The notes below the pieces were generated by a model. That model worked only from the letters and a program-made list of their open reading frames with translations. It searched no databases and was not told where the DNA came from. A program made the translations under genes and the position numbers. Positions 16,146 through 49,080 of a stretch of 64,000 nt of DNA are shown piece after piece. Where the stretch lies: the NCBI GenBank assembly GCA_965224105.1, contig CBDCYH010000002.1, positions 900,150-964,149 on the forward strand. The letters are read 5' to 3'. The DNA comes from Rhodothermales bacterium (GTDB lineage Bacteria > Bacteroidota > Rhodothermia > Rhodothermales > JABDKH01). How positions within the stretch are numbered: position 1 is the first letter of the stretch; every line of letters starts with the position of its first letter.

Positions 16146-16178
16146 AAAGCCGCTCGATTCCACGGGCGGCTTTTTTTA
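16146..16178. terminator. Bidirectional rho-independent terminator between convergent rpsU (+) and the 2-oxoglutarate dehydrogenase gene (-)
   Basis: AAGCCGC-N12-GCGGCTT perfect 7-bp stem followed by TTTTTTT. An A-rich tract precedes it on the other strand. Confidence 0.6.
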
Positions 16179-19100
16179 TGCCAGGACCTCGTCAAGGATC
16201 GCCTGTTGCTGCAGTTGGTGTACCTTTGCGCTTCCTGTCGACGGACTCGCACTTGCATCTCGCCCCACATACCGCAGCTGCTTGGCGCCCGGCGCATCGG
16301 CCATCAGCCGTTCAATCCTCGGCGCAATGAATGTCCAAGCGCCCATATTCTTGGGCTCTTCCTGTAGCCACAGAACCTCAGACGCGTTGGCGTAACGCTG
16401 CAGCTCCGGCCCGACCTCATCCGACGGGAAAGGATAGAACTGCTCTATCCGAGTAATGGCAATTTCCGCCCGCAGGTCTTCGCTCTCCTCCATTCGCGCA
16501 AGCAGATCGAAATAGACCTTGCCGCTGCAGAAGACAAGCTTACGCGCTCGCGCCGGATCAGCCGTAGCGGGTATCATTCTTTGTACGGATCCAGCTACCA
16601 ATTCGCTAACAGGCGACACAGCCATTGGATGACGAAGCAAACTCTTTGGTGACATTACGACCAGCGGCTTGCGATTTCCGCGCATCATCTGCCGGCGTAG
16701 TGCATGGAAAAAATTGGCCGGTGACGTAAACGTGCAAACCGACATGTTGCCCTGGGCGCAGAGCTGCAGGAAGCGTTCGAGTCTTGCAGAGGAATGCTCT
16801 GGCCCCTGGCCCTCGTATCCATGCGGCAACAACAATACGAGACCGCTCTTCTGCCCCCACTTTTCTTCAGCCGCCGACATGAACTGGTCAAAGATTATTT
16901 GCGCTCCGTTGGCGAAGTCACCAAACTGTGCCTCCCACAGGACCAAAGTGTTAGGTGCCGCTACAGAGTAGCCGTACTCAAACCCACACGCGGCGTACTC
17001 CGACAGGAAGCTGTCATAGATAAGTAATGTGCCCTGCTCCTCCTGGATATGATTCAGCGGGATGTAGTCATCTCCTGTTGATTGGTCGACCAGTACACCG
17101 TGTCGATGGCTGAACGTACCCCGCTGTGAATCCTGTCCGGCAAGTCTAACGTTTTTCCCGTCAACGAGAAGTGAACCGTACGCAAGCGCCTCGGCCAATC
17201 CCCAGTCAACAATCTGCTTTTCCTTGTACAGGTTCTTGCGTCGCTCAAATTGGCGCACAAGCTTTTTGTGGATCCCGAAATCATCAGGCCACGAAACTAA
17301 TGCATCCAGGACCCGGTCGAGTCCTGACTCCGGAACGCCGGTATCGATCGAGCCAAAGGATTCCACTTCTTTGGAGCTCTCTGGTAGAGTGACGGTTTTC
17401 TCCGCATCCCTCTCGGCAATCTCCTTTGTTTCGTCGAATGCCTCCTGTAGTCGCGCTCGATAATCATCCAGCATCTTCTCCGCCTCCTCGAGACTCATCT
17501 CGCCGCGGGCAAGCAGCGCCTCGGTATAGAGTTTACGAACGGACCTTTTCGCTTCGATCTTTTCGTACAACAGTGGTTGTGTGTACGTCGGTTCGTCGCC
17601 CTCATTATGACCGTGGACCCGGTAACACAGCATGTCGATAACAACATCCTTGTCATACTCCTGTCGATAGTCGAACGCCATCCTCGCCACGCGAACGCAG
17701 GCCTCCGGATCGTCGCCGTTAACATGAAATATCGGCGCCTGAATCATGCGCGCAACATCCGTAGCGTACGTTGAGCTCCGCGCCTCTTCAGGTGTTGTGG
17801 TAAAGCCAATCTGGTTATTTATCACTACGTGGATGGTACCGCCCGTATGATAACCTGGCAGCTGGCTCAGATTAAGAGTCTCTGCAACCACCCCCTGGCC
17901 GGCAAAGGCAGCATCACCGTGAATGAGCAACGGCATCACCGCATCCCACGAATCAATTTCGTTCTCCTGCTCGCCCCGATCCATGCGCGTGCGCTGCTTC
18001 GCCCGGACCATCCCTTCGACCACAGGGTTGACTGCCTCGAGATGACTTGGATTGGACGCGAGCGTAATAGCCACCTCATTGCCTTCCGCGGAAACGTGGC
18101 TTCCCTCGAATCCCAGGTGGTACTTCACATCACCCGAGCCCTGCGTAGTATTGGGGTCGAGGCTTCCCTCGAACTCAGAGAAGATCACTTCGTACGGCTT
18201 GTGCAAAATATTGGCCAGCACGTTCAGCCGCCCGCGGTGGGCCATCCCGATCACCACCTCTTCTACCTTTCCATCTGCGGCACTCGACAGGATCGTGTCA
18301 ACCAATGGGATGACGGTCTCGGCACCTTCGAGTGAAAACCTTTTGTGGCCGATGTACTTGGTGTGTAGGAAGCGTTCAAAAGCCTCGGCGGCATTCATGT
18401 TGGAGAGAATTCTGCGCTTTTCTTCTGGCGGAAGCTCCTCGCTCGACCGGACGGGTTCAATACGCTCCTGCAACCACCGCTTTTCTTCTGGTGATGAGAT
18501 GTGCATGTACTCCACACCAATTTTCCTGGTGTAGGTATCGCGGATCACTTCCAGAATGTCTCTAAGCGGAAGCAGTGAGTCCATCCCACCGAGACCGCCT
18601 GTGTCAAACTCGCGGTCGAGGTCCCAGATGGTAAGCCCGTACGACGCCGGGTCCAGCTCCGGATGGTATTCCCACACGTGGCCCAGCGGGTTGACGTCTG
18701 CCTGAAGGTGTCCGCGAACACGATAGGCCCTGATAAGCTGCAGCACCCGGGCCTGCTTGTGGATCATCTCCTGATCCGAAGTCAACGCGGATCCGCCAAT
18801 CGCCGGCGTATTGTCAATTGCCAAACGATACGGCTGGTGTGGAATTCCCAACTCCGCGAACAACGTGTCGTAGAAGGTTTCCTTGCCGAGCAGGAGGTTG
18901 GTAACGTATGCCAGGAATGCTCCACTCTGCGCACCCTGGATAACGCGGTGATCGTATGTCGACGTGAGCGTCATCACCTGGGATATGCCGGTCTTGCTCA
19001 CAACTTCCGGCGGGAAGGCGTGATATTCCGGCGGATAACCGATCGACCCAACACCCACAATTAAGCCCTGTCCCTGCATTAGTCGCGGCACACTTAGCGA

Positions 19101-19856
19101 CGTGCCGATCATGCCCGGGTTGGTGAGGGAGACAGTCGTTCCTGTAAAATCAGATAGTTCGAGCTTGCTATCCCGAGCGCGCTTGACGAGGTCGTTGTAG
19201 ACACCAATGAATTGCGGAAAAGTCAGGTTGCCGCAGTCTTTGATGTTCGGTACAAGTAGAGTGCGTTTACCGCGGCGCTCGATATCGATTGCGATGCCCA
19301 TATTGATTCCGCCGGGCGTAACGTGTTCGAGGTTCTCACCCGACCGGCGGAAGTACGAATTCATGTTTGGGACTTCGAGCAGCCCTTTCACCACTGCCCA
19401 TCCGATGAGGTGCGTGTAGGAAACTTTGTCGCCACCGATGTTGCGCTGAAAATCGTTAATCAGCTTCCGGTTTTCCGCCATCAGTTTGACGGGGAAGGCT
19501 CTAACGGATGTTGCGGTAGGGACCTCGAGGCTGGCCTCCATGTTCTCCGCGATCTTTCCCGAAGGCCCGCGAAGCACTTTTACGTCTTCGGGTTCGCCCG
19601 GGGGCGCGGCCTCTGTTACGGCACCGTCTCCTCCCCGCACCTTGTCGTCCGCAGCAACCACTGCAACTGCATCGGATGTTTTTACGGCGGGCGCAACCGA
19701 CGGCGTGTTCTGCTTGCGCGCCTCTTCGGCTGCAGTGAACGATTCGGTCGGGGTATAATCAGCAAAGAAGTCCTGCCAGCTCTCGCTGACGCTCTTCGGA
19801 TCATCCAAATACTGCCGGTACAGTTCCTCTATATAGCCGGTGTTAAATCCTAACAT
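16176..19856 (-). CDS. sucA: Multifunctional 2-oxoglutarate dehydrogenase, OdhA/Kgd type: SucA N-terminus + lipoyl-less E2 catalytic domain + E1 ThDP domains
   Basis: 1226 aa. N-terminus MLGFNTGYIEELYRQYLDDP (SucA). Residues about 100-330 carry an acyltransferase catalytic domain with the DHRxxxG active site (TYDHRVIQGAQSGAFL). E1, transketolase-like and C-terminal OGDH domains follow. Confidence 0.9.
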   Translation of the reverse strand: MLGFNTGYIEELYRQYLDDPKSVSESWQDFFADYTPTESFTAAEEARKQNTPSVAPAVKTSDAVAVVAADDKVRGGDGAVTEAAPPGEPEDVKVLRGPSGKIAENMEASLEVPTATSVRAFPVKLMAENRKLINDFQRNIGGDKVSYTHLIGWAVVKGLLEVPNMNSYFRRSGENLEHVTPGGINMGIAIDIERRGKRTLLVPNIKDCGNLTFPQFIGVYNDLVKRARDSKLELSDFTGTTVSLTNPGMIGTSLSVPRLMQGQGLIVGVGSIGYPPEYHAFPPEVVSKTGISQVMTLTSTYDHRVIQGAQSGAFLAYVTNLLLGKETFYDTLFAELGIPHQPYRLAIDNTPAIGGSALTSDQEMIHKQARVLQLIRAYRVRGHLQADVNPLGHVWEYHPELDPASYGLTIWDLDREFDTGGLGGMDSLLPLRDILEVIRDTYTRKIGVEYMHISSPEEKRWLQERIEPVRSSEELPPEEKRRILSNMNAAEAFERFLHTKYIGHKRFSLEGAETVIPLVDTILSSAADGKVEEVVIGMAHRGRLNVLANILHKPYEVIFSEFEGSLDPNTTQGSGDVKYHLGFEGSHVSAEGNEVAITLASNPSHLEAVNPVVEGMVRAKQRTRMDRGEQENEIDSWDAVMPLLIHGDAAFAGQGVVAETLNLSQLPGYHTGGTIHVVINNQIGFTTTPEEARSSTYATDVARMIQAPIFHVNGDDPEACVRVARMAFDYRQEYDKDVVIDMLCYRVHGHNEGDEPTYTQPLLYEKIEAKRSVRKLYTEALLARGEMSLEEAEKMLDDYRARLQEAFDETKEIAERDAEKTVTLPESSKEVESFGSIDTGVPESGLDRVLDALVSWPDDFGIHKKLVRQFERRKNLYKEKQIVDWGLAEALAYGSLLVDGKNVRLAGQDSQRGTFSHRHGVLVDQSTGDDYIPLNHIQEEQGTLLIYDSFLSEYAACGFEYGYSVAAPNTLVLWEAQFGDFANGAQIIFDQFMSAAEEKWGQKSGLVLLLPHGYEGQGPEHSSARLERFLQLCAQGNMSVCTFTSPANFFHALRRQMMRGNRKPLVVMSPKSLLRHPMAVSPVSELVAGSVQRMIPATADPARARKLVFCSGKVYFDLLARMEESEDLRAEIAITRIEQFYPFPSDEVGPELQRYANASEVLWLQEEPKNMGAWTFIAPRIERLMADAPGAKQLRYVGRDASASPSTGSAKVHQLQQQAILDEVLA

Positions 19857-26460: not shown

Positions 26461-26841
26461 CTAGTCGTTGCCGATGACGAGCGCGTCCGGCAGGTCGTTC
26501 CTTTGCGCGTTCGGGTTCAATAGCGGACCGGTGAGCGGCAGCTCGAATGCGGTGAGGAAAGGCGCCATTGTCGAGAAGAATAGCTCCTGCTGCAATTCGA
26601 TCATATCGTCTGTGAAACCGTGCTTCTCATCAGCGTGACCGGCGATGTCGAGATAGAACATCCGCGGCCAATCGGGAAATTGCTTTTGGGCGCTTATGAT
26701 CAGCCCGAACATAGCCTGCGCGGCGGTATCAAAGCTATCGTCGGGTCCAACGATGTGATAGATCGATACGGTATTATCGAAATTCATCGCAATACCGGGC
26801 GACGATGGCTTGTTGTACTCAGGTGCGTTCGGCTGATTCAT
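26461..26841 (-). CDS. Hypothetical 126-aa protein translationally coupled to the uvrA stop
   Basis: ATG lies 3 nt after the uvrA TAA. No recognisable motif. Confidence 0.5.
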   Translation of the reverse strand: MNQPNAPEYNKPSSPGIAMNFDNTVSIYHIVGPDDSFDTAAQAMFGLIISAQKQFPDWPRMFYLDIAGHADEKHGFTDDMIELQQELFFSTMAPFLTAFELPLTGPLLNPNAQRNDLPDALVIGND

Positions 26842-26844
26842 GGT

Positions 26845-29800
26845 TTACTCGCTTTCTGCTGGATCCATTTCGAACAACTCTTCTTCGCCCTCGTCGGTGT
26901 CGTCATCCCCATTGCTGCTAATCTCATCAAACAGTTTTCCGAAGTCTTTGGCTTCTCCCTTCTCGCTCAGCGCGAGCTCTTCTTTCAGGTAAACTCCGGT
27001 CGGGGTTTTTTTGCGCGCCACTTGCTCGGGCGTTCCTTCACCGACAATGGTTCCACCTTTACTACCCCCCTCCGGGCCGAGGTCGATAACATGGTCGCAA
27101 ACTTTTATCACATCCATGTTGTGCTCGATTACCAGGACGGTGTTCCCCTTGTCAACCAGCGCGTGCAGGACGTTAAGTAACCTGCGCACATCTTCAAAGT
27201 GCAATCCCGTTGTGGGTTCATCCAGTATATACAGTGTGCTTCCGGTGCCCGGCCTCGAGAGCTCCTTACTAAGCTTCACCCGTTGCGCTTCGCCACCGGA
27301 AATGGTTGTTGCCTGTTGGCCAAGCCGAATGTAACCGAGACCAACAAGATCCAGTGTATGGAGTTTGCGTTGTATCCGCGGGATCTGCTCAAAAAACTGT
27401 AAAGCCTCGGACACCGTCATATTCAATACATCCGCAATCGATTTCCCTTTGAACGTCACCTCCAACGTCTCGGCGTTGTACCGCTTTCCCTTGCACGTAT
27501 CACACTCCACATAGACATCTGGCAGGAAATTCATTTCAAGCTTCGAAATGCCTGCGCCTTTGCATGTTTCGCATCTGCCACCTTTTACATTGAAGGAGAA
27601 TCTGCCTGGTTTGTAACCACGAATTTTTGATTCCGGAATCTCGGCAAACAAATCCCTGATATGGGTGAACAGCCCGGTGTACGTTGCAGGGTTGGACCGC
27701 GGGGTCCGTCCTATCGGCCGCTGATCGATTTCGATAACCTTGTCAATGTTGTCCAGGCCTTCTATCGCTGCATGCGGTAGGGGTACTTTTGATGCCTTGT
27801 GGTAGTGGCGCGCCAGGATAGGGTATAGGGTTTGGTTCACGAGCGTCGACTTGCCGGAACCGGATACTCCGGTTATTGCAACCAGTTTACCGAGCGGAAG
27901 TCGGAGGTCGACGTCTTTCAGATTGTGACCGCGAGCGCCTTTGAGCACTAGTGAAAGGCCGTTGCCTTTCCTCCTCCGCTTTGGAATGACAACCGACCTT
28001 TTCCGTGCCAGATATTGCGCGGTATAACCACGCGCTGATCCACCTCGAAGTAATTGTTTTGCCGTACCTGCAGAAATTACCTCGCCACCATATTCTCCTG
28101 CACCGGGACCGAGATCCACCACGTAGTCTGCAACCTCGATCATCTCTCGATCATGCTCAACAACGATGATGGTGTTGTCGAGGTCACGCAGTTGCATGAG
28201 CGAGTCAATGAGCTTGCTGTTGTCTCGTGCGTGCAGTCCGATGCTGGGTTCGTCCAGTACATACAGCACACCCGTCAGCTGCGTCCCGATTTGTGTAGCC
28301 AGTCGGATGCGTTGGCTCTCTCCACCTGAGAGCGTCCGGGCGGGTCTGTCTAAAGTGAGGTAGTCGATGCCGACGTTGAGAATAAAATCCAGTCGCTCCG
28401 TTATTTCCTTTACGATCGGTTTTGCAATTACGGCCTGCCGCTTTGTCAATTTCAATTCAGAAAAGAATGCGCGCAGAGAACCGAGATCCATTTGAACCAA
28501 ATCATGAATATTCTTCCCCCCCACTCGAAAAGACAGGCTCTGCTGCTTTAACCGCCCGCCGCCACATTCTGAGCACTTGTCTGAGCGCATGAAAGACTCG
28601 GCCCAACGTCGCAGGTGCGGCGAGCTCGTCTGATCCAGAACGTGCTGGATATGACCATAGACGCCAGCAAACCGGTGTTTGTATTTTACTGTGCGCGATT
28701 TGTACTTGTACTCAATGTCAAACTGCTTCTCCCCGGCACCATCAAGCAGTACCTCCAGTTGGTCGGTCGTGAACTCCGACAGGGGAGTATCGAAAGTAAA
28801 TTTGTACGCATTCGCAACAGCTCCAAGCTGGCTGAACATCCAGATGTCGCGCGGTTTTCCCAGCGACTGGATCCCACCCTCGTTGATGGTCTTCGAGTAA
28901 TCCGGAATCACCAGCTCGGGGTCTATTTCCTTCGTGTAGCCGAGGCCGTTGCAATGCGGGCACGCGCCGTACGGTGAATTGAACGAAAACGTGTTCGGCG
29001 AAGGGTCGTCATACGAGATGCCGTCTGTCGGAGAAAACAGGTGCCTACTGAACAACAAATCATCCGCGCCACCCGCTTCATCCAGAACCGCTGCGATTAC
29101 GGCCCCATTGCCAATTCCTAGTCCTACCTCGACTGACTGTGCAACCCGCGTTCGGACCCCGGGCTTAATGATGATCCGGTCGACAACCACTTCGATGTCA
29201 TGCGTCTTGTACCGATCGACTTTCAGTCCCTTTTGGATTTCGACGACTTCCCCGTCGATGCGCACCCGGTTGAATCCCTGTTTCGCAATTTGCTCGAACA
29301 GCTCGCGGTAATGACCCTTGCGTCCTTTCACGACGGGAGCAAGCAAGAGAAGTCGCGTACCATCGGGAAGGTTGCTGATGCCATCGATAATCTCATCATC
29401 AGACTGCCTGCGCATTTCTTCGCCGGAGATGTATGAGTGAGCGGTTCCAGCGCGGGCAAACAAGAGTCGAAGGAAATCATAAATCTCCGTGACTGTCCCA
29501 ACTGTCGAGCGCGGATTACGGCTTACGGTTTTCTGCTCAATCGCAATCACCGGTGAGAGGCCGTCGATGAAATCCACGTCCGGCCGCTCCATCATCCCGA
29601 GGAATTGCCGCGCGTACGCGCTCAGGCTCTCCATGTACCGGCGCTGGCCCTCGGCATAGATTGTATCGAAGGCAAGACTCGACTTACCCGATCCGGACAG
29701 TCCCGTCACAACCGTAAGCTGGTTGCGGGGGATGTCGACGTCGATGTCTTTGAGGTTGTGCTCGCGGGCGCCTCGGATTACAATCTTTTCGTCCATGCAG

Positions 29801-29850
29801 CTTGGAGGATAGACTGTGGCAAACTGAACCGCCGAATCTTCGTTCCTCAT
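26845..29850 (-). CDS. uvrA: Excinuclease ABC subunit A
   Basis: 1001 aa. Two ABC ATPase modules ([20 protein letters not shown]). Zn-finger Cys clusters. Signature LSGGE motifs. Confidence 0.97.
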
Positions 29851-29879
29851 TTACACGGACTTGTTTGTCGGTGCGTGAT

Positions 29880-30440
29880 CTAGCTTGCTTTTCTTTTCGG
29901 CTGACGCCGAGGGGCCGGAGCTTGATTCGGTTTCCTGTTGCGCGTCTGTCCAACTACAACGAATGGCTCCAGGTGCGGCTGCGTTGCAATCCCATCGCCA
30001 GACATCCCTGGTAAGAAAGCAGCTGGAATTTTCGGTTCGTGGACAAACTGCTTTCGTTCGTCCACCTCCTCCCATCGCTGCGGTATCCGGTACAAATATC
30101 TGCCGATACCCCACTGCACGGCCGCACGTCGCATGCTACTGCTAAGGCCACCTTTGACGGATGCGAGTTTTGTGTTGGGCGCTCCATCCCATTTTGTTAT
30201 CCACTCCCCATCAACGCAGATGGAAATCCCACACAGCACGCCGCCGCCCGGGCCGCGCTGAAATTCGTTGCGCCAGTTGGCCGGTCCGCACACCTGGTCC
30301 AGTCGATCCATGATGGCGCGGTTGGTTACGTAGGGTACCGCCAGCGCACGTTTGAGGTCGGTCGTGAATCTTACCGGCTTCCATTCAATGTCTGTGCTCG
30401 TGAAGTATTCCGAGAGGCGAGAGAGATCAGGTCGCGACAT
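29880..30440 (-). CDS. Rad52/Rad22-family single-strand annealing protein (DdrA / phage Sak-like)
   Basis: 186 aa. GPANW...C...GEW...KGGLSSSMRRAAVQWGIGRYLY matches the Rad52-family hallmark (AxSDALKRAAVxFGIGRYLY). Basic Pro-rich C-terminal tail. Confidence 0.8.
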   Translation of the reverse strand: MSRPDLSRLSEYFTSTDIEWKPVRFTTDLKRALAVPYVTNRAIMDRLDQVCGPANWRNEFQRGPGGGVLCGISICVDGEWITKWDGAPNTKLASVKGGLSSSMRRAAVQWGIGRYLYRIPQRWEEVDERKQFVHEPKIPAAFLPGMSGDGIATQPHLEPFVVVGQTRNRKPNQAPAPRRQPKRKAS

Positions 30441-30495
30441 GTTTTACCCCGGTTAGGCTCATTTTGTTGGTCTGATGCAACATAACGGGGGTGGG

Positions 30496-30511
30496 TGACA
30501 ACCGTTTGTCA
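30496..30511. promoter_or_regulatory. Inverted repeat TGACAA-N4-TTGTCA in the divergent promoter region upstream of the Rad52-like/uvrA operon; candidate operator
   Basis: Perfect 6-bp arms, about 55 bp upstream of the Rad52-like start codon. Confidence 0.25.
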
Positions 30512-30776: not shown

Positions 30777-31373
30777 ATGAGTACAATCTATCTGATTAGC
30801 CTTATCGTCGGGGGATTCTTCGTAATCCTGTCTATGATCGGCGGCGACAGCGATGCCGACGTCGACGTCGGTGGAGATGTGGATCTCGAAGTTGACTTCG
30901 ACACCGACTTTGATGCCGACGCAGACATGGGCGCGGATGCGGGGCTGGATGCATCGGGAGTTGGATTCATAGATCTGCTGTCTGTTCGAACGCTGTTCTT
31001 TTTCCTGGCATTTTTTGGCCTCACCGGGACACTGTTCAACATGATGGGTACCGCAGAACCCCTTGCGGCAATATTATCCCTGGCCACGGGCGCTGTAATT
31101 GGACTCGGCGCTAACTACATCATTAAAACCATCGGATACAAATCTGTAACCAGCAACGCCACAACCCGTGAGCTGAAGGGCGCAACCGGCAAGGTCTTGC
31201 TCCCATTTGACGGCGCGGCAAAAGGAAAAATTTCAGTCGTTGCTAAAGGTCAGCGGTTGCAGCTCGTTGCGCGCTCGCTCGACGAAACGACAAAGGAATC
31301 GTTTGACAAAGGAGAGGAAATCGTAATCGTTCGGATGAACGGCTCGATAGCGGAAGTTGTAAAACCCAATTAA
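30777..31373 (+). CDS. NfeD-family membrane protein (TM + C-terminal OB-fold) with an acidic Asp-rich repeat insert
   Basis: 198 aa. N-terminal TM. (D-A/V-D) low-complexity stretch. Second TM. C-terminal beta-rich domain. Immediately precedes the flotillin gene. Confidence 0.72.
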   Translation: MSTIYLISLIVGGFFVILSMIGGDSDADVDVGGDVDLEVDFDTDFDADADMGADAGLDASGVGFIDLLSVRTLFFFLAFFGLTGTLFNMMGTAEPLAAILSLATGAVIGLGANYIIKTIGYKSVTSNATTRELKGATGKVLLPFDGAAKGKISVVAKGQRLQLVARSLDETTKESFDKGEEIVIVRMNGSIAEVVKPN

Positions 31374-31382
31374 GAGGAAATC

Positions 31383-32618
31383 ATGGAAGTTTTAGTAATA
31401 CCGTTTGCCATTATCGTTGCCGCGATGGCTGTGATTGGCGTTATCCGCGCCAACCTGAAGATCTGCCAGCCGAACGAAGTGCTGATCTTCAGTGGTAGGC
31501 AGAACAAGCTGTCAGACGGCAGCACCGTTGGCTATCGCGTCATCCGCGGAGGTAGGGGTTTTCGGATTCCCATCATCGAAAAGGTTGACCGGTTATTCCT
31601 GAACACCATTCCCCTCGATCTTACCATCAACAACGCATATTGCCGTGGCGGTATTCCACTCACCGTCCGCGCTATTGCGAACGTAAAGGTTGCGTCAACA
31701 GAGGCGGAACTGAACAACGCGGTTGAACGATTGCTGGGCAAACCCTGGGAAGAAATCCAGATGATTGCCAAGGAAACGCTTGAAGGAAACTTGCGCGGTG
31801 TAATCGCAAAGCTTACTCCAGAGGAGGTGAACGAAGACCGCCTGAAGTTCGCGCGCGAACTGCTTGATGAAGCCGACTCGGACATGAATGCGCTGGGATT
31901 GCAACTTGATACGCTCAAGATCCAGAGTGTCGAGGACGACCGCGGATATCTTGACGCGATTGGACGGCAGAGTTCGGCAAACGTGATTGCCGCCGCCGAA
32001 ATTGTTGAAGCGCAAAAACTTGAAGCTGCGAAGCTCGCACAAGCCAAGGCAGACAAGTCCATTGTCGAGGCCGAGAACGATGTTCGTCTCGTGCGTGCAA
32101 GGTTAGATGCCCAGGCAGTAGCCGAAGAAGCGAAGGTAGCAGTTGCGGCCAAAGTCGCCGAGGCAAAGGCCGAGCAGGAGCTGGCGCAGCAGGAAATTAT
32201 GCTTGCCGAAAAACGCCAACGTGCAGAGATCATCGTTGCCGCGGAGGCCGAGCGCCAGGCCAAAGAGGAAATTGCCAAAGGCAACGCTGCGAGAATCTTC
32301 GAGGACGGTAACGCCGAAGTGGAGGTTCTCAAGAAAAAACTCGAGCTGTGGCACGAGGCCGGATCGGAAGCCGAGAAACTATTCCTCATCCAGATGCTGC
32401 CGGACATTCTGAGTCAGGTAGTTAAGACGGTCGACAATCTGCAGATCGACAAGATCACAGTCGTGGACAGCGGCCAGGGAAGTGGAGGTGGAGTACCAGC
32501 AGTGTTTAGTCAGATTGCAGGCTCGACGCCGGCGTTACTGGAAAGCTTGAAGGCGAGCACAGGTGTGGACATTGCGGGGATGTTGAGCAAGGTAAACCCC
32601 GAGGATGAGGCCGGATAA
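31383..32618 (+). CDS. Flotillin-like SPFH/band-7 protein (FloT/YqiK family)
   Basis: 411 aa. N-terminal TM. SPFH domain. Long Ala/Glu-rich coiled-coil (EA repeats). C-terminal flotillin region. Confidence 0.88.
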   Translation: MEVLVIPFAIIVAAMAVIGVIRANLKICQPNEVLIFSGRQNKLSDGSTVGYRVIRGGRGFRIPIIEKVDRLFLNTIPLDLTINNAYCRGGIPLTVRAIANVKVASTEAELNNAVERLLGKPWEEIQMIAKETLEGNLRGVIAKLTPEEVNEDRLKFARELLDEADSDMNALGLQLDTLKIQSVEDDRGYLDAIGRQSSANVIAAAEIVEAQKLEAAKLAQAKADKSIVEAENDVRLVRARLDAQAVAEEAKVAVAAKVAEAKAEQELAQQEIMLAEKRQRAEIIVAAEAERQAKEEIAKGNAARIFEDGNAEVEVLKKKLELWHEAGSEAEKLFLIQMLPDILSQVVKTVDNLQIDKITVVDSGQGSGGGVPAVFSQIAGSTPALLESLKASTGVDIAGMLSKVNPEDEAG

Positions 32619-42154: not shown

Positions 42155-42685
42155 TTACGCTGCACGCGCCCTGCCCCTGTTGCTGTCTTGCGTTAGAGAC
42201 ATTAAGAGCGGGGGAGCTTCATCGACCGTCGCAACCAACTCGTATCGATGAAGCATTTCCCCGGAACGACGGAGCCGCACCGTCGTCGTAGTCGCGCCGA
42301 CTCGCGCGAACAACTCAGGATGCCTGATAAGCAGCACCTCGATAATAGCGTCCAAATGGTATGCAACGTCCAGTGCTCCGATCTCGTAAAACGAATGCAC
42401 CAAACGCGTGGGATGCGTTGCAAAATCCGTCGCATCTACCGCCCGGAACGCCCCTCGCTGGATCGAGATTGCAACACCTCCACCAATACCCATCAGAAAC
42501 AAATCAATATTTACACGGCCATGCGCTGTGGGCAACGGCAAGTTGGACTCTATTATTACCCCTTCAGCGAGCATTCCGGACAACTCCGCTGCCAGGATGT
42601 CTATCCCCGGACTTACTTGCCCACATACAGGAATACCATTTGGATCGAGCGTACTTTGAGTGGTGCTTACGAGTAAATTTTTCAT
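42155..42685 (-). CDS. Hypothetical protein
   Basis: Open frame with good coding composition. No motif recognised. Confidence 0.35.
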   Translation of the reverse strand: MKNLLVSTTQSTLDPNGIPVCGQVSPGIDILAAELSGMLAEGVIIESNLPLPTAHGRVNIDLFLMGIGGGVAISIQRGAFRAVDATDFATHPTRLVHSFYEIGALDVAYHLDAIIEVLLIRHPELFARVGATTTTVRLRRSGEMLHRYELVATVDEAPPLLMSLTQDSNRGRARAA

Positions 42686-42851
42686 GGCAGTGAGTCGTTT
42701 AGTAGTGAGGCGTCTTAGCATACTTTGATTGCGTATATCCCAATCTATACCCCAGGGGTGACAACTGAGTGTCATACCCTGGAATCATTTTTTTGAGGGC
42801 CGTATCAGCCGATTTCCTGTTCAGCAACCAAGCCAATCAACATCTTTCTCC

Positions 42852-45785
42852 GTGCTTCGTAACCGCCTCCTGCCTTTCCTTCTCGCATTATTGCTGTGCA
42901 TTCCCGTTCGCGCATGGGGACAGGGTTACTCTTCGTTCAATGGCCGGAACCATCCGGAGCTGAAATGGCAGTTTGTGGAGTCCGAACACTTTCGGATCAT
43001 GTTCCCACAACGAATTGCCGGGATCGAAAACCAGGCTGCGCAGATTGCTGAGGAGTCCTACGAGGCTCTCAGCAAAAACCTCGACGTAACATTTGATCGG
43101 AAAATCCGCATTTACCTCTCAGACGAGGACGAGATAACCAATGGATTCGCGGTTCCCATCCAAAGCGGGCACACCAACATTTGGGTGAACCTCAACGACG
43201 CGCTCAACAGCTGGACCGGCGAGGAAAAATGGATGCGCAAGGTCATCGCCCACGAGCTCGGTCACATCTTTCATTACCGCGCAATCCGCTCCAACATTCA
43301 CCCAATCGACTTCGCAATCTCAAACCCGATCCCCAGCTTTTGGGCAGAGGGACTCGCCCAGTACCAGACCGAAAAATGGGATGCATTCCGGGGCGACCGT
43401 TGGCTCAGAACCGCAGTCCTGGATGACAAACTCTCGTACAACGATGGCCGCTCATCCTGGAACGGCCGGCTCCTGTATTCCGTCGGCAACTCGCAGCTTC
43501 GATATTTTGCCGACCGCTTCGGCGACTCCACCCTCACCGCCCTGCTAAAGCACCGTGAACCGGCTCTCCTCGGCCTCGCCAAGGTGCACAACTTCGAGTC
43601 GGCCTTCGAAGCTGTGACCGACATGAAGTACCCCGAATTCTATGACGACTGGAGAAGGCACATCAATATCTACTACAATTCCATCGCGTCACAAATGGAG
43701 AATGCAGATTCTCTCCGCGCGGATGAGGTAAATCTCCCCGGCCAATATTTGTACGACGTCAAGATCTCCCCCGACTCAAGCAAGGTAGCGATTGTCGCTC
43801 TCACCAGCCTCAACCGGCCGGTGCGCAGGTTATACATTCTCGACACGCACACAGAGGAGACTATCATAGCGGCCGAAGGAAATATCCGCGTGCCCGTGGC
43901 GTGGAGTCCCGACAGCAGGCGGGTGTTTTATGCGAGCCAGGTGCGAAGTCAGCATGGTTCGTTGTTAAACGACGTGTTTGTCTATGATGTGCCAACGAAG
44001 ACCGACCTACGCCTAACCACCGGCAGGCGCGCGAATTTCCCCACGGCAAGCCCCGATGGCCTGCAGATTGCATACGCCGCAACCAATGGTCCAACCACAA
44101 ACATCTACACCGCGCAACTCTCCAACCTGCAAGAGAAACAGGTGACACGCTACAGCGGGGACGTACAGATAGGCCATCTCGCATGGAGCCCTAACGGCTC
44201 AAGCATAGCATACTCTCTTTTTGATCAGGCCGGAGAGCGCACCATTCAGACGGTCGATGTAAGGTCGCTGCAAACAAGAGCGATCACCGGTGGGCAACAC
44301 GATGACCGGCAGCCGACCTGGTCACCGTCTGGAGACCGCATCGCTTTCACGTCATATCGGGACGGCGTTCCAAACGTGTTCACCATGCGGGTGGACACGG
44401 TGGATTCGGTCAAGCGAGTTACCAATCTGGTCACTGGTGCGACTATTCACGACTGGTTGCCCGGCGGAGTGGAGCACACTCGCGGACTGCTCGCCGTTAT
44501 CGTTGGTGAAAGTAAAACATCCGATACTGCTTACCTGGTGGACGCGGCGCGCGTGCCATACACCAGAGAGATCCAACTGCCAGCCCAGTATGACAGATGG
44601 ACACGGGTGGCTCCGGAGCAAACGATCCCGTCGTTCGTGCATCGACCAGATGTCAAGATATCTGCTCCCAAACGGTATCGATCTGTAAGCAACATTTCGC
44701 ATGTCTTTTCGCTACCGTTCCCTTACTACGGAACGGCTGAAAATTGGGGGATCGGCGGAGTAACTTCCTGGACTGAGCCCTTATCACGTCACTCGATTTT
44801 TGCTGGAGGACTGTTTAGCATACCGAAGCCAGCGAACTCGACCCTGTACATCGCTTACGTTAACAACACACTTGCGCCTTCTATACAAACCGAGGTTAGC
44901 TACATCCCGGGAGCGGCGCGACCCTACGAAAACACCATCCTGGAAGAAAGAGCTTCTCAGGCTGAGGTAAAAATTCGCTGGCCTATCAGTTCGGGAATCA
45001 GCCCCTACCGGCAAACCTATTTTTCTGTACGCTCCCGATTCCTGAATGTTGACATTCGCAATCCGGAGGACTTCATTGATCAAGATTCCGGACTGCCGGT
45101 CCCGGAGTCGGGAGAGCAGTATGACCTGCGCGTTTCGTTCACCCGAAAGTTTCAGCGTCCGTACCGCTTCAATGTTGTGCATCCTCTTGACGGCTCCGGC
45201 ATCCGGGTTCGACTGTCGGGAGGATTTTTGCGTACTGATGAGAATCGAAGATTCGTCCAGCTGGATCTGAGCGCATACCGCATCTTCCCGGCGCTGGGCC
45301 TAAACCGGATTTTGGTTTATTCGCGTATGCAGACGCAGAGGGGTCGTGGTCTAGCCCAGAATTTCCAGGGCCTGTCGCGATACGATGCCCTGCAAATACA
45401 CTCGCCGAATTTTGTTCAGGCAGAATTTTCCAATTCGGAACGCGTTCGTGGCTACCGGTCCTTCGCTTTGGGCCAAACGGTTGTATTTGGTTCGTTGGAA
45501 TACCGGATTCCAGTGGTTCCAAGCCTCAGAACAACACTTTTGGGCTCGGTATCCCTTGGCAGCACGAGCCTGGCTCTTTTCGCCGATGGAGGCCTGGTTT
45601 TTGATGATGTAGATTACGGAGACGCGATCAAGAGACTGGGCGTGGGAATGGAACTCAAGAATGAACTCCGACTGGGGAGCAACATCCGCTTTATGCACGC
45701 CGTTGGTATTGCCGGACCCGCGAACGACCTCGGCAGAGATACGTACGATCTCTACTACCGGATTCGCACTACCCTCCCGTTCTAA
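42852..45785 (+). CDS. Chimeric outer-membrane protein: signal peptide + HExxH zinc-metallopeptidase-like domain + PD40/TolB beta-propeller repeats + C-terminal Omp85 (surface antigen D15) beta-barrel
   Basis: 977 aa. IAHELGHIFHY. Repeated WSPDS / SPDGLQIAYAA / WSPNGSSIAYS / WSPSGDRIAFTS blades. C-terminal VRGY...SLEYRIP...LFADGG...TLPF resembles the end of the BamA barrel, with a terminal Phe. Confidence 0.7.
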   Translation: MLRNRLLPFLLALLLCIPVRAWGQGYSSFNGRNHPELKWQFVESEHFRIMFPQRIAGIENQAAQIAEESYEALSKNLDVTFDRKIRIYLSDEDEITNGFAVPIQSGHTNIWVNLNDALNSWTGEEKWMRKVIAHELGHIFHYRAIRSNIHPIDFAISNPIPSFWAEGLAQYQTEKWDAFRGDRWLRTAVLDDKLSYNDGRSSWNGRLLYSVGNSQLRYFADRFGDSTLTALLKHREPALLGLAKVHNFESAFEAVTDMKYPEFYDDWRRHINIYYNSIASQMENADSLRADEVNLPGQYLYDVKISPDSSKVAIVALTSLNRPVRRLYILDTHTEETIIAAEGNIRVPVAWSPDSRRVFYASQVRSQHGSLLNDVFVYDVPTKTDLRLTTGRRANFPTASPDGLQIAYAATNGPTTNIYTAQLSNLQEKQVTRYSGDVQIGHLAWSPNGSSIAYSLFDQAGERTIQTVDVRSLQTRAITGGQHDDRQPTWSPSGDRIAFTSYRDGVPNVFTMRVDTVDSVKRVTNLVTGATIHDWLPGGVEHTRGLLAVIVGESKTSDTAYLVDAARVPYTREIQLPAQYDRWTRVAPEQTIPSFVHRPDVKISAPKRYRSVSNISHVFSLPFPYYGTAENWGIGGVTSWTEPLSRHSIFAGGLFSIPKPANSTLYIAYVNNTLAPSIQTEVSYIPGAARPYENTILEERASQAEVKIRWPISSGISPYRQTYFSVRSRFLNVDIRNPEDFIDQDSGLPVPESGEQYDLRVSFTRKFQRPYRFNVVHPLDGSGIRVRLSGGFLRTDENRRFVQLDLSAYRIFPALGLNRILVYSRMQTQRGRGLAQNFQGLSRYDALQIHSPNFVQAEFSNSERVRGYRSFALGQTVVFGSLEYRIPVVPSLRTTLLGSVSLGSTSLALFADGGLVFDDVDYGDAIKRLGVGMELKNELRLGSNIRFMHAVGIAGPANDLGRDTYDLYYRIRTTLPF

Positions 45786-45816
45786 AATCGATTGCCATCA
45801 GACGTGGCATTCTGGC

Positions 45817-48800
45817 ATGGCCGAAGTAACATCCGATAACAAAATAGTCGAACAGTCCGATACGGACGCTCGAGCATCCGCCACGAACGGATCGGCGTCT
45901 CCCCAACAAACGCTCCTCGCAATTTCCACGGAGATGTCGGATGAGGTTGCGCGCTTTCGCAGTGTGTGGAGCGAGGAGGTCGACACAAAAATTCGCACAC
46001 CTCTGAAAGAGCTTTTTCAAAATGCTCTGCTGGCGCACGCTGATCACCGCGCTGAACTGTATAACACCACATCAGACAATTTCACCATTGCGGCGCTGGA
46101 CAACTATATCACCGGGACTCGCGCAGATGTGTTGCAGCCAATATTCTCCTTCTTCTCTGAAAAGAATTGCGCGGATGTGGTGGGAGATGCGTTTGCCTCC
46201 GGCTTGGAGGTAGTTAAAACTCTAGAGGGGCGATATCCATCTGAAATTGTCGTGGACGAGACGCCGGATATTTTTCGCCCCGCACCTTCGGACAGCTGGT
46301 CCACATTCTTTAGAAAACGAGCGGCACGGTTAAAGCGGATGTTTGGTGGCAGCAAGCGTCGCGTCCGCCGCGTACCGATCTTCGCGATTACGCAATACCA
46401 CCTCCATCGACGATTACCCATTATCGCCTCACCCCTCCACGATGATTTGCAAGAGTCGCTGGCAAATATCGTTGGCCTTGTCGAATCAACGGCGTCGCAC
46501 TGGATCCACGACACACTCGCAAGCACCCGACAGGTGCGCAGGCGAATGTTGTCGCAAGAGTCAGCGGACAACCCTGAGGGAACGGAGGAGCAGGAGGAGC
46601 CCAACCACCCCGCTGCCGATGTTTTCGAATCAGGCGAGGCATTTCAAAACAGATTGCTGCAGCTGGTCGATCTGTGTGAGCAGATAAGAGCTGAATCGGA
46701 TAAGGTCACTGTTAAATTCGACATGGCGCAAAGCCTGTTTGATACCGATCTGCGAGATGGCGGCACGTTCCTGCTTCCCTTGTCGGATCGCCGCCTCCGC
46801 AAGGGTGAGTATCAGGCTGGTGAGATTCTTAATTCGAAACGCGAAACCTGGCACGCTTGGCATTCGGCAGCGCAAGATCGATTCAAACTCCTGGATCGCC
46901 TTCTCGCTCTGCGCGCCACAGTGTACCAGCTGGCCAGGCGTGTCCTGGATAGAATCGACCGGACGTCGCTCCAACCTGCGCACCGCGCTTTTGCCAAGAT
47001 CCGTGAGGGAATTGTCGCATCGAAAACGGAGATCGAATCAGCTAAAGAAACCGCGACGATTGAATCCCTCCAGGAACTCATCACCGGGCAACACAAAAAG
47101 TTGACACGACTATTTGATCGGGCAATTGCGAGCCTGCCGGGTTTGGTATCGCGAGAAAATGCACTAACCGAACCTGGAAAAGAAGAGTGGAAAGCGTTTT
47201 CTCGTTTTGTTGACACCTTGCCCGAAAAGTTGGTCGTCCACCCGCTCAAGGAGGATCATCAAATGGTTGACCCGCTCTTATGGGAGCGGGAGATAGAATT
47301 CCAGCATGGCGTACGGGGTGTTGTCTTTGATTCGATTGCCGCGCCGCTAAGGCAGAGCGCTTCGAAGTTGCAGCAGGGCCTGGTTCGGGCGTGGACTGAA
47401 TTCGAACAGGTTCGACACATCTCGCTGTTTAATCTTGAAGCTGCAGCAGCGGAGCTGTCGGGCGAGAATATCGATGAGGAGGTGGAGGCCGGAGAATCCG
47501 AAGAACCCGTTGACAACTTTACCGCGGGTTACGAGCTGGCGGTTGTCGGGGCCGATCGAGCAGTGGCCGCGCTCGACGAGCTGGTACAAAAACTGGAAAA
47601 CCCGTGGCGTGAGTTTTCGAACACGGTGGATAAGGAGTTCTTCGAGGAGTGGAACGCGATTCACATCCGCGTGCGCACTCTGGACCAGTCATCTGGCCGG
47701 ATGGCCGACCTCAACACCAGGATTGATCGACTCCGTGAACGTTCTCTTGCAAACCTTCGGGCGGGCTGGGCCGAGACCAAACTCAGGTGGGCCGTTACGG
47801 CACGAGCGGTTACCAGGAGAATCAATCGGCTCATCCGCAAGGGTCGAACCGCGGTGGGTGCCGTTAAGGACGACCAGGCTTTGCGTGCCCAAACGGTCGA
47901 GGCCATTTCCAGCGTCGTTGAGTTTAAAAGCACGCTACCGCTCGTTTACAGACGATTGTTTTCTTTTGATGCGCTTGAAGATTCTTCCTTGCTGGAAGGC
48001 AGGAGCGAAGACATTGACTGGGCCCGCAATCACTACGAGCGCTGGCAAACAGGTCACCACGTTGGATTGGCGGTTGTTGTCGGGATGCCAGGTTCGGGAC
48101 GGACAAGTTTTCTGAACGCACTTGCGTCAACTACCTTTGAGGATGTCGTTGTTCACAAACTTACACTGAGCCATCGGATTGAGGACGAGGCGACACTGAT
48201 TCGCGCCCTGACCGAAACGGCAGAGCTATCGGGCGACATTTCTACTTTTGCCGAGCTTGAAAACGCGCTGCAAACTCTTGCTGGTGACTTGCGGCCGATA
48301 TATCTCATCGACAATGTCGAGCATCTGATGCTGAACTGCGCCCGCGGTCGGGAGCTCATTGAGGAGTTTCTGCTCTTCTTGTCCCGATCAGACACGCGTA
48401 TCTGTTGGATCATGTCCATCGCAGCGCCTGCCTGGAAGTATCTACGTAAGACTGCACCGGCTGCTGCTGGGTTTGTCGTCTCCCGACATCTCGATGATCT
48501 TGGGAAGTTTGACTACGAATCCCTGATAATGAACCGGCACAGACGAAGTGGCATGCCCGTTCATTTTCTGGAGCCGGCAACGTCTACGGCCCTTGCCCGC
48601 CAACGCCTACGCAAAGCCTCTACGGACGAGGAAAAGCAGGAGATCCTGCGCGAGAATTATTTCGACCGGTTAAGCAAACTGTGTGGGCAAAATGTAATGC
48701 TCGGCTTATTCTACTGGCTGAGGTCAGCGGATTTTGAAGCGGACGCGGGCGTACTTACCGTCAAGCCGATAGTACCCTTATACTTCGATTTCCTGAACAA

Positions 48801-49080
48801 GATGGAGCAGCCGTTGGCCTTCACGCTTCGCGCTATGCTTGTTCACAACACGTTGAACGTCGAGGAGCACAACAAAATTTTCCGGTTGGGTTCGGACGAG
48901 ACCACGTTTATCCTGGACACGCTACTGAATGGAGGGTTGGTGCACGCATCTGATATTGCGTTGGATCGGACCAAAGCCACCGACAGAAATTTCTTTGATC
49001 CCACGAAGCGCTACCGCATTCACCCACTGGTGATCCACAACATCGTGCAGTTCTTGAGGGGGCGGAATATTCTGCACTAG
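45817..49080 (+). CDS. Large (about 1087 aa) P-loop NTPase of unknown function: long alpha-helical N-terminal region plus an AAA_16/STAND-like ATPase module
   Basis: Walker A VVVGMPGSGRTS. Walker B-like IYLIDNVEH about 95 aa later. Start taken at the ATG at 45817 to avoid overlapping the upstream gene. Confidence 0.6.
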   Translation: MAEVTSDNKIVEQSDTDARASATNGSASPQQTLLAISTEMSDEVARFRSVWSEEVDTKIRTPLKELFQNALLAHADHRAELYNTTSDNFTIAALDNYITGTRADVLQPIFSFFSEKNCADVVGDAFASGLEVVKTLEGRYPSEIVVDETPDIFRPAPSDSWSTFFRKRAARLKRMFGGSKRRVRRVPIFAITQYHLHRRLPIIASPLHDDLQESLANIVGLVESTASHWIHDTLASTRQVRRRMLSQESADNPEGTEEQEEPNHPAADVFESGEAFQNRLLQLVDLCEQIRAESDKVTVKFDMAQSLFDTDLRDGGTFLLPLSDRRLRKGEYQAGEILNSKRETWHAWHSAAQDRFKLLDRLLALRATVYQLARRVLDRIDRTSLQPAHRAFAKIREGIVASKTEIESAKETATIESLQELITGQHKKLTRLFDRAIASLPGLVSRENALTEPGKEEWKAFSRFVDTLPEKLVVHPLKEDHQMVDPLLWEREIEFQHGVRGVVFDSIAAPLRQSASKLQQGLVRAWTEFEQVRHISLFNLEAAAAELSGENIDEEVEAGESEEPVDNFTAGYELAVVGADRAVAALDELVQKLENPWREFSNTVDKEFFEEWNAIHIRVRTLDQSSGRMADLNTRIDRLRERSLANLRAGWAETKLRWAVTARAVTRRINRLIRKGRTAVGAVKDDQALRAQTVEAISSVVEFKSTLPLVYRRLFSFDALEDSSLLEGRSEDIDWARNHYERWQTGHHVGLAVVVGMPGSGRTSFLNALASTTFEDVVVHKLTLSHRIEDEATLIRALTETAELSGDISTFAELENALQTLAGDLRPIYLIDNVEHLMLNCARGRELIEEFLLFLSRSDTRICWIMSIAAPAWKYLRKTAPAAAGFVVSRHLDDLGKFDYESLIMNRHRRSGMPVHFLEPATSTALARQRLRKASTDEEKQEILRENYFDRLSKLCGQNVMLGLFYWLRSADFEADAGVLTVKPIVPLYFDFLNKMEQPLAFTLRAMLVHNTLNVEEHNKIFRLGSDETTFILDTLLNGGLVHASDIALDRTKATDRNFFDPTKRYRIHPLVIHNIVQFLRGRNILH

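Follow-up and report, generated by a model that had tools for sequence, protein, structure and literature searches.

A Sak-type annealing protein of the Rad52 superfamily kept as a host gene in Rhodothermales, with a putative promoter of its own and an apparently accidental uvrA neighbour

Bacterial annealases of the Rad52 type are usually regarded as phage baggage; to our knowledge, DdrA of Deinococcus is the sole studied example that is owned by its host. What, then, is a gene of this kind doing in the chromosome of a Rhodothermales bacterium, just upstream of the excinuclease gene uvrA? The question is raised by a stretch of 64,000 nucleotides (contig CBDCYH010000002.1 of assembly GCA_965224105.1, positions 900,150 to 964,149; this whole 64-kb stretch is called the window below), in which an open reading frame (ORF) of 186 amino acids (aa), uvrA and a further ORF of 126 aa, orf126, follow each other (Table 1). 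A first-pass annotation had read the three as a dedicated DNA-damage operon. Its observation is largely real: the three minus-strand ORFs (186, 1001 and 126 aa) are present as described, and orf126 begins 3 nt after the stop codon of uvrA. The operon is another matter. We think, with a probability of about 0.72, that the 186-aa protein is a domesticated single-strand annealing protein (SSAP) of phage type, with a regulated promoter of its own and a co-regulated partner gene, and that uvrA is its neighbour by accident.

The Rad52-family core motif already noticed in the 186-aa ORF (GPANW...KGGLSSSMRRAAVQWGIGRYLY) is there, and the protein matches the profile PF04098 (Rad52_Rad22) above cutoff, with 51.2 bits (E 1.7e-13, cutoff 20.3, profile positions 94–145); the same domain was found in all 120 listed homologs. 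The match to PHROG 1097, a family of phage SSAPs, is far stronger (185.9 bits). It is a large family (4,922 matches) that is shared with phages: 185 relatives are encoded in viral contigs, with identities up to 62%, and 168 matching records come from cultured phages, with 52–61% identity over residues 5–138. These cultured phages include P22-like/lambdoid, Lactococcus and Salinibacter phages, whose proteins bear the annotation 'Erf-like SSAP' or 'Rad52/22 family'. In comparison, the plasmid-borne Rad52/22 proteins of Deinococcota are merely 33–38% identical to the 186-aa protein. Considering the family matches and the identity to phage proteins against that to the Deinococcota plasmid proteins, we place the 186-aa protein among the Sak-type members of the Rad52 superfamily, in the same family as the SSAPs of the lactococcal phage ul36, the staphylococcal phage 80α and the P22-like/lambdoid phages mEp235, SE1 and IME10.

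A search of the PDB with the profile of the Rad52-like family gave no match and, therefore, a fold prediction was needed. In the AlphaFold model, the core is predicted with confidence, its predicted local distance difference test score (pLDDT) being above 90 over residues ~10–130, and this core displays the annealase fold of a β-sheet, a helix and a β-hairpin. The top 16 Foldseek matches of the model are human RAD52 or yeast Mgm101, with probabilities of 0.98–0.99, yet with E values of only ~1e-3. Compared to eukaryotic RAD52 and mitochondrial Mgm101, the window protein shows 10–17% identity and a shorter β-sheet, and it lacks the C-terminal Rad51/RPA-binding region of RAD52. Its own C-terminal tail is rich in Pro, Arg and Lys and is disordered. 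Moreover, 34 columns of the core that are at least 90% conserved are identical in the chromosomal and viral sets described below; therefore, the annealase core has been kept intact. By homology, the protein would be expected to anneal single-stranded DNA (ssDNA) and to form rings.

The C-terminal end varies within the family. An acidic-aromatic end ([DE]x[FY]xxP, e.g. EDFMMP or DEFLMPG) is present in 11 of the 76 Rhodothermales copies, and the end of one copy, P0023 (...GDLPF), resembles the C-terminal tip of SSB; P0040, P0044, P0063, P0110, P0113 and P0023 are examples of such C-termini. A peptide of this kind may serve for docking to other proteins. It is missing from the window protein and from its closest relatives, which have a short basic tail instead.

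Relatives of the SSAP are encoded at 235 loci of species-representative genomes. The best 75, which come from genomes named as Rhodothermales, Rubricoccaceae or 'Bacteroidota', including Roseithermus sacchariphilus, Rubrivirga spp. and a Rhodothermus metagenome-assembled genome (MAG), were used as the Rhodothermales set. The chromosomal sources were the window and loci L001–L080 (81), and 80 viral loci served for comparison; conclusions on the gene content of the loci rest on tblastn and hidden Markov model (HMM) matches. Neighbour-joining on the 131-residue core places the window protein and the 75 Rhodothermales copies in one clade without any viral sequence inside, with moderate bootstrap support (23/30), and the five genomic copies from outside Rhodothermales among viral sequences. 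The dN/dS ratio (nonsynonymous to synonymous substitution rates) of the core is 0.006–0.077 in eight pairs, which means strong purifying selection. The genes found recurrently beside the SSAP gene in other Rhodothermales are Amt, BrkB/YihY, SDR, aldo-keto reductase, esterases, a sigma-70 factor, DUF819 and ArgH, and 61 of the 81 chromosomal sources have no ORF in common with the 80 viral loci other than the SSAP. Two ORFs of the window have matches in viral loci, those of a sigma factor and an M23 peptidase. The first-pass annotation had placed the gene in the chromosome and outside any prophage, and this is borne out by the window: among its ~45 profiled ORFs there are no phage genes, no tRNA was found in the 64 kb, and neither a GC anomaly nor a compositional step runs across it. 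The surroundings are not those of a phage or prophage recombination module, since the neighbours in the window are housekeeping genes. Thus, every line of evidence says that the SSAP gene is a host gene and not a prophage remnant, i.e. the housekeeping window, the separate clade, the low dN/dS and the non-phage neighbours.

A survey of upstream regions by k-mers and inverted repeats revealed a palindrome, TGACA-N6-TGTCA. Allowing one mismatch at most, it is present in 64 of the 75 Rhodothermales loci, mostly 55–79 nt before the start of the Rad52-like gene, and in 0 of the 80 viral loci. Only two exact copies exist in the 64-kb window. Anchoring the 64 loci on this site gives the consensus T(G/A)TGACA-N4-G-N-TGTCAC-N10-(T/G)A-N3-T; in the anchored matrix, A at +18 is found in 58/64 loci and T at +22 in 63/64, and the sequence of the N10 spacer is variable. 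No −35 element exists at standard spacing in the 64 anchored loci, and the −10 register is invariant in them as well as in the promoters of the partner gene discussed below. Scanning for the full architecture gave 66 occurrences in 0.87 Mb of Rhodothermales loci versus one in 1.05 Mb of viral loci. Scanning 26–31 kb of the window for sigma-70 consensus promoters gave no match, and no Rfam elements were found within the same interval. The literature search returned no paper describing TGACA-N6-TGTCA and none linking Rad52 with Rhodothermales.

This geometry can be compared with that of two ssDNA-sensing WYL activators of LexA-independent DNA-damage regulons, PafBC of Actinobacteria and DriD of Caulobacter (PMC8635444, PMC13004042). 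PafBC is a WYL-domain activator that, when bound to ssDNA, inserts between sigma and the '-26 element' at promoters without −35, with the consensus tGTCgg(N10)tA(N3)T (PMC8635444). In the promoters of the homodimeric DriD, the spacing between the palindrome and the −10 is constant, and there is no −35 either (PMC13004042). The Rhodothermales element has the layout of the PafBC consensus, with a TGTC-containing site exactly N10 from a tA(N3)T −10 and no −35, and it also fits DriD promoters. There are differences as well: the window site is fully palindromic, whereas that of PafBC is not, its half-site is not that of DriD (ATACGAC-N7-GTCGTAT), and the phylum differs from both. Because the −10 register is invariant and there is no −35, as with PafBC and DriD, we favour and infer by analogy a dimeric PafBC/DriD-like activator that would act at the palindrome. 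A damage-response role of the SSAP is then plausible because of this promoter architecture, not because uvrA is adjacent. Going one step further, we suggest only tentatively that an undescribed LexA-independent damage regulon may exist, in which a homodimeric activator of WYL type on TGACA-N6-TGTCA would control the annealase and its partner as a RecA-independent repair module.

The palindrome could be a repressor operator instead, for example of an unrecognised LexA-like or phage-CI-like SOS repressor, with the SSAP and its partner being de-repressed. It is true that the 16-bp palindrome overlaps the promoter core, as LexA boxes do, and that LexA motifs vary widely among phyla (PMC8565304). 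In addition, in locus L037 a one-mismatch motif with the −10 register (~7894, minus strand) faces a radical SAM gene of the PA0069 family (NF033668, 449.8 bits; related to the Rv2578c family) that is divergent from the Rad52-like gene at 8001, and the LexA regulon of Balneolaeota lists a radical SAM gene (PMC7739468). Against an operator, an invariant −10 register without −35 is expected of an activator that docks on RNA polymerase, and is not needed by a repressor. Moreover, the motifs described for LexA of Bacteroidetes (GGA-N5-TCC and CTAA-N5-TTAG) and of Balneolaeota (a direct repeat) were rejected as matches, since their sequences differ from that of the palindrome (PMC8565304, PMC7739468), and neither uvrA (8 loci) nor uvrB has the motif upstream, so that the SSAP gene does not look like a member of a LexA/SOS regulon. 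Weighing both sides, we regard the operator as a possible but rather doubtful explanation. Another one-mismatch motif with the correct −10 register was observed in locus L066 (~282, plus strand), 48 nt before holA, which encodes the delta subunit of DNA polymerase III; this could be either a chance occurrence or a further member of the regulon.

The second copy of the motif in the window is an exact match that passes the full-architecture scan and precedes a gene on the minus strand that we call the partner gene. The genes downstream of the other motif copies not belonging to Rad52-like genes form one fast-evolving family with it, joined by transitive BLAST matches (the homologs P0242 and P0243 have 177 and 179 aa). 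Searched for with an HMM, the partner family turns up in the window and at 15 Rhodothermales loci, on the strand of the Rad52-like gene every time, and at none of the 80 viral loci. In four loci that lack the motif directly before the Rad52-like gene (L015, L029, L049 and L055), the partner lies immediately upstream of that gene, with gaps of 7–147 nt. The motif stands before the partner gene in L015, L049 and L055, and neither copy is present in L029. The two genes thus apparently constitute an operon in these four genomes. The shared promoter, the conserved vicinity and the apparent operon arrangement make the partner family, and not uvrA, the likely conserved functional associate of the SSAP.

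The partner family gave no match in Pfam (E ≤10), NCBIfam, PADLOC or a PDB profile search. A search of 1.84 billion proteins with its HMM returned one trivial relative and one repetitive protein only. The latter, P0244 (1101 aa), is the sole distant match, and query positions 93–138 hit it in eight stretches, as corresponds to a repeat protein. In hhalign, the probability of a match to any of 15 clusters of genes neighbouring phage SSAPs stayed below 1%, so that no cluster of phage neighbours resembles the window partner gene. The 206-aa ORF was considered as LexA and rejected, because it has no Pfam match and no helix-turn-helix or S24 domain. The C-termini of the family end in ...AA, ...SA or ...AS, which is reminiscent of degradation tags of the ssrA type. 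Homologs of the M48-peptidase/PD40 gene adjoin the partner gene or a motif copy in L002, L006, L015, L034 and L055.

Such a partner raises the alternative that the SSAP serves a role other than repair, for example in processing the DNA taken up by natural transformation, in restarting replication, or in keeping mobile elements or phages in check. The partner evolves fast (2 close homologs and 2 library-wide matches), as is frequent among conflict-related genes, and it is often divergently paired with the M48-peptidase/PD40 gene. We consider this alternative unlikely, since the partner family has no PADLOC match, the promoter layout is that of known DNA-damage activators, and the core with its 34 shared columns is nearly unchanged from phage recombinases.

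Table 1. Coordinates of the features discussed, as positions in the 64-kb window.
Feature	Position	Strand	Remarks
Rad52/Sak-type SSAP gene	29880..30440	−	186 aa; core ~residues 5–135
uvrA	26845..29796	−	true start is Met19 of the 1001-aa long ORF, which runs to 29850
orf126	26461..26841	−	126 aa; start codon 3 nt past the uvrA stop
Putative palindromic regulator site TGACAAACGGTTGTCA (TGACA-N6-TGTCA)	30496..30511	−	56–71 nt 5' of the Rad52-like start codon
−10-like hexamer TATGTT	30479..30484	−	exactly 10 nt past TGTCAC
uvrA promoter-like element GGAACGAAGATTCGGCGGTTCAGTT (GGAAC-N17-GTT, ECF-sigma-like)	29822..29846	−	within the 83-nt spacer
Partner-family gene	42155..42685	−	~176 aa, from Met31 of the 206-aa ORF
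Second copy of the putative promoter TATGACACTCAGTTGTCAcccctggggtaTAGATT	42742..42774	−	palindrome 42759–42774, −10-like hexamer 42742–42747
NfeD-like gene	30777–31373	+	divergent from the Rad52-like gene, paired with the flotillin/SPFH gene
Flotillin/SPFH gene	31383–32618	+	second of the NfeD-flotillin pair
M48-peptidase/PD40 β-propeller gene	42852–45785	+	977 aa; divergent from the partner gene
AAA_22/AAA_16 ATPase ORF	45661–49080	+	1139 aa; overlaps the end of the M48/PD40 ORF
uvrB	4422–6491	+	~22 kb from uvrA
2-oxoglutarate dehydrogenase	16176–19856	−	1226 aa; E2 acyltransferase catalytic domain (residues 97–322) plus E1

The product of uvrA is a canonical excinuclease ABC subunit A: it matches the UvrA equivalog NF001503 with 1408.7 bits (cutoff 1147) and TIGR00630 with 1350 bits, and contains the domains UvrA_inter, UvrA_DNA-bind and ABC_tran. 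The first-pass annotation was right in that the Rad52-like gene and uvrA are co-directional, and wrong in the gap of 29 bp between them. The alignment to NF001503 begins at residue 19 of the long uvrA ORF, and the relatives all begin at the corresponding Met (MD[EQD]x); because of this, the spacer measures 83 nt and not 29. The 18 surplus codons (ATG AGG AAC GAA GAT..., read as MRNED...) are an invariant non-coding element. An invariant GGAACGAAG-N13-GTW (GTT or GTA) lies 5' of the uvrA Met in the window and in L001, L002, L003, L004, L006 and L013, and the alignment of these seven loci shows that it is kept regardless of the gene upstream of uvrA. It has a single exact copy in the window, and among the 163 fetched loci it is found solely at six uvrA positions; the region upstream of uvrB lacks it. 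GGAAC-N17-GTT is the typical layout of promoters of extracytoplasmic function (ECF) sigma factors, and the uvrA element may well work as an ECF-like promoter. This is an annotation trap, in which the longest uvrA ORF swallows the promoter-like element of uvrA and a false look of operon coupling is created.

That the Rad52-like gene, uvrA and orf126 would form one dedicated, co-transcribed operon whose products act together against DNA damage had seemed reasonable from the co-directional genes and the small distance between them; also in its favour, the minus strand, on which they lie, has no predicted terminator-like site between 26000 and 31000. The order Rad52-like gene, uvrA, orf126 also recurs in L001 and L002. 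When synteny is checked across the relatives, though, gene order is not conserved. The direct order Rad52-like gene, uvrA, orf126, M23, DUF2795, Omp85 is confined to these two nearest relatives; in L003–L006 an esterase gene of ~380 aa on the opposite strand (convergent) separates the Rad52-like gene from uvrA, and in L013 1.2 kb lie between both. At the ~65 remaining Rhodothermales loci, uvrA does not occur within 8 kb of the Rad52-like gene, and in the complete genome of Roseithermus the two genes are at ~0.87 Mb and ~1.98 Mb, i.e. ~1.1 Mb apart. Besides, uvrA has its own invariant element and never the motif of the Rad52-like gene, and uvrB has neither. A joint operon is therefore improbable in our opinion, and the proposal of the first-pass annotation finds no support; judging from these gene orders, the uvrA adjacency is probably a lineage-specific accident.

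As for orf126, it has no match in Pfam, PHROGs or NCBIfam. It is a small α/β protein of a compact family of 331 proteins with 57–76% identity, whose source names are solely Rhodothermales or Bacteroidota and which has no Pfam domain. Its homologs follow uvrA in close relatives, and since orf126 starts 3 nt after the uvrA stop, both genes are probably co-transcribed in this lineage. In Roseithermus sacchariphilus (CP030158, locus L161, 1975002–1989418), uvrA is followed by the gene of an 890-aa multi-PAS sensor and then by the orf126 homolog; in Rhodothermus profundus and in a 5.9-Mb genome, the orf126 homolog is unlinked to uvrA. Thus, orf126 is only loosely tied to uvrA, and at greater distance their vicinity outlasts the direct coupling.

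A second Rad52-like copy is present in some Rhodothermales genomes: L026 and L048 lie on one contig, L009/L031 and L017/L056 are pairs from the same MAGs, and L036 is a further case. L031, L048 and L056 are without the palindromic motif. L036, L048 and L056, which are extra or motif-less copies, have phage-like neighbours with homologs in viral contigs, and L036 carries an ORF resembling an HNH endonuclease. These extra copies look like genuine prophage or mobile copies beside the domesticated one. The gene of the window differs from the phage Sak SSAPs in that it is not in a phage and has no exonuclease, SSB or Arf neighbour, and in its putative promoter specific to the host clade, its vertical inheritance and the purifying selection on it. 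That it would be a leftover of a degraded prophage, without host function, is very improbable, because the sharing of the family with phages (PHROG 1097, 185 viral-contig relatives, 52–61% phage identity) and these extra copies with phage-like neighbours are outweighed by the strong purifying selection, the clade-wide presence and family-level synteny, the clade-specific promoter absent in all 80 viral loci, the window free of phage genes and the 61 of 81 chromosomal sources that share no non-SSAP gene with viral loci.

The rest of the window is in line with an ordinary chromosomal region. All the profiled ORFs are housekeeping, e.g. uvrB, PspA, 2-oxoglutarate dehydrogenase, a BamA-like Omp85 protein, M23 peptidase, NfeD/flotillin, GDP-mannose dehydratase, sigma factors and ArgRS. 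The fusion of E2 and E1 in the 2-oxoglutarate dehydrogenase is best known from the actinobacterial OdhA/Kgd. The divergent NfeD-flotillin pair is the neighbour of the Rad52-like gene that is most widely kept (~14 loci), above uvrA, and no functional link is evident.

Taking all this together, we think that a Rad52/Sak-type SSAP of phage origin was probably captured by an ancestor of Rhodothermales and is now a vertically inherited host gene under purifying selection. It would be transcribed from its own promoter, in which TGACA-N6-TGTCAC lies exactly 10 nt from a −10-like hexamer without −35, and where a dimeric activator would recruit RNA polymerase, as the ssDNA-sensing WYL regulators PafBC and DriD do. 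The same promoter would drive the fast-evolving partner gene. Upon activation of the regulator, for which DNA damage or ssDNA is the most plausible trigger, rings of the SSAP would bind ssDNA and anneal complementary strands, and the outcome might be the RecA-independent repair of double-strand breaks or gaps, which the partner protein would assist or control. In turn, uvrA would be run from its own ECF-like element in the 83-nt spacer, and orf126 would be a separate, Rhodothermales-specific gene co-transcribed with uvrA in this lineage only.

Besides the operator discussed above, several points weigh against this proposal. The Rhodothermales clade comes from neighbour-joining on 131 columns with the moderate support already given, and similarity to the query had already guided the selection of both the chromosomal and the viral sequences. 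No WYL-domain regulator is found among the profiled ORFs of the window. Annealing and ring formation are predicted from homology only. A PD-(D/E)xK/Vsr-like reading of the core motif of the partner was dropped, as its candidate catalytic residues are not conserved. Finally, some read-through from the Rad52-like gene into uvrA is possible in this genome, since no terminator is predicted between the genes.

The comparison with Deinococcus is of particular interest here. DdrA is a chromosomal Rad52-family protein, induced by radiation and desiccation, that protects 3' ssDNA ends (Harris et al. 2004, as summarised in PMC10140301). The window protein is like DdrA in being a bacterial, chromosomal, non-prophage member of the Rad52/Rad22 family that is plausibly regulated by stress or damage. 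The two were compared by proxy, through the Deinococcota plasmid proteins with their 33–38% identity, and the label 'DdrA-like' expresses an analogy rather than a demonstrated relationship. The upstream palindrome is presumably not a radiation/desiccation response motif (RDRM) or DdrO site of Deinococcus. We are apparently dealing with a phage-type protein that was domesticated independently of DdrA.

What we find, then, is a phage-type annealase that an entire order of bacteria has retained as a core gene, under strong selection and with a clade-specific putative promoter and what seems to be a dedicated partner. We know of no LexA motif or WYL regulon described so far in Rhodothermota and, if confirmed, the present proposal would offer a first view of DNA-damage regulation in this phylum. 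It would also mean that a Rad52-like protein has been domesticated a second time, independently, for the maintenance of a host genome, and it might provide a thermostable or halotolerant protein for recombineering.

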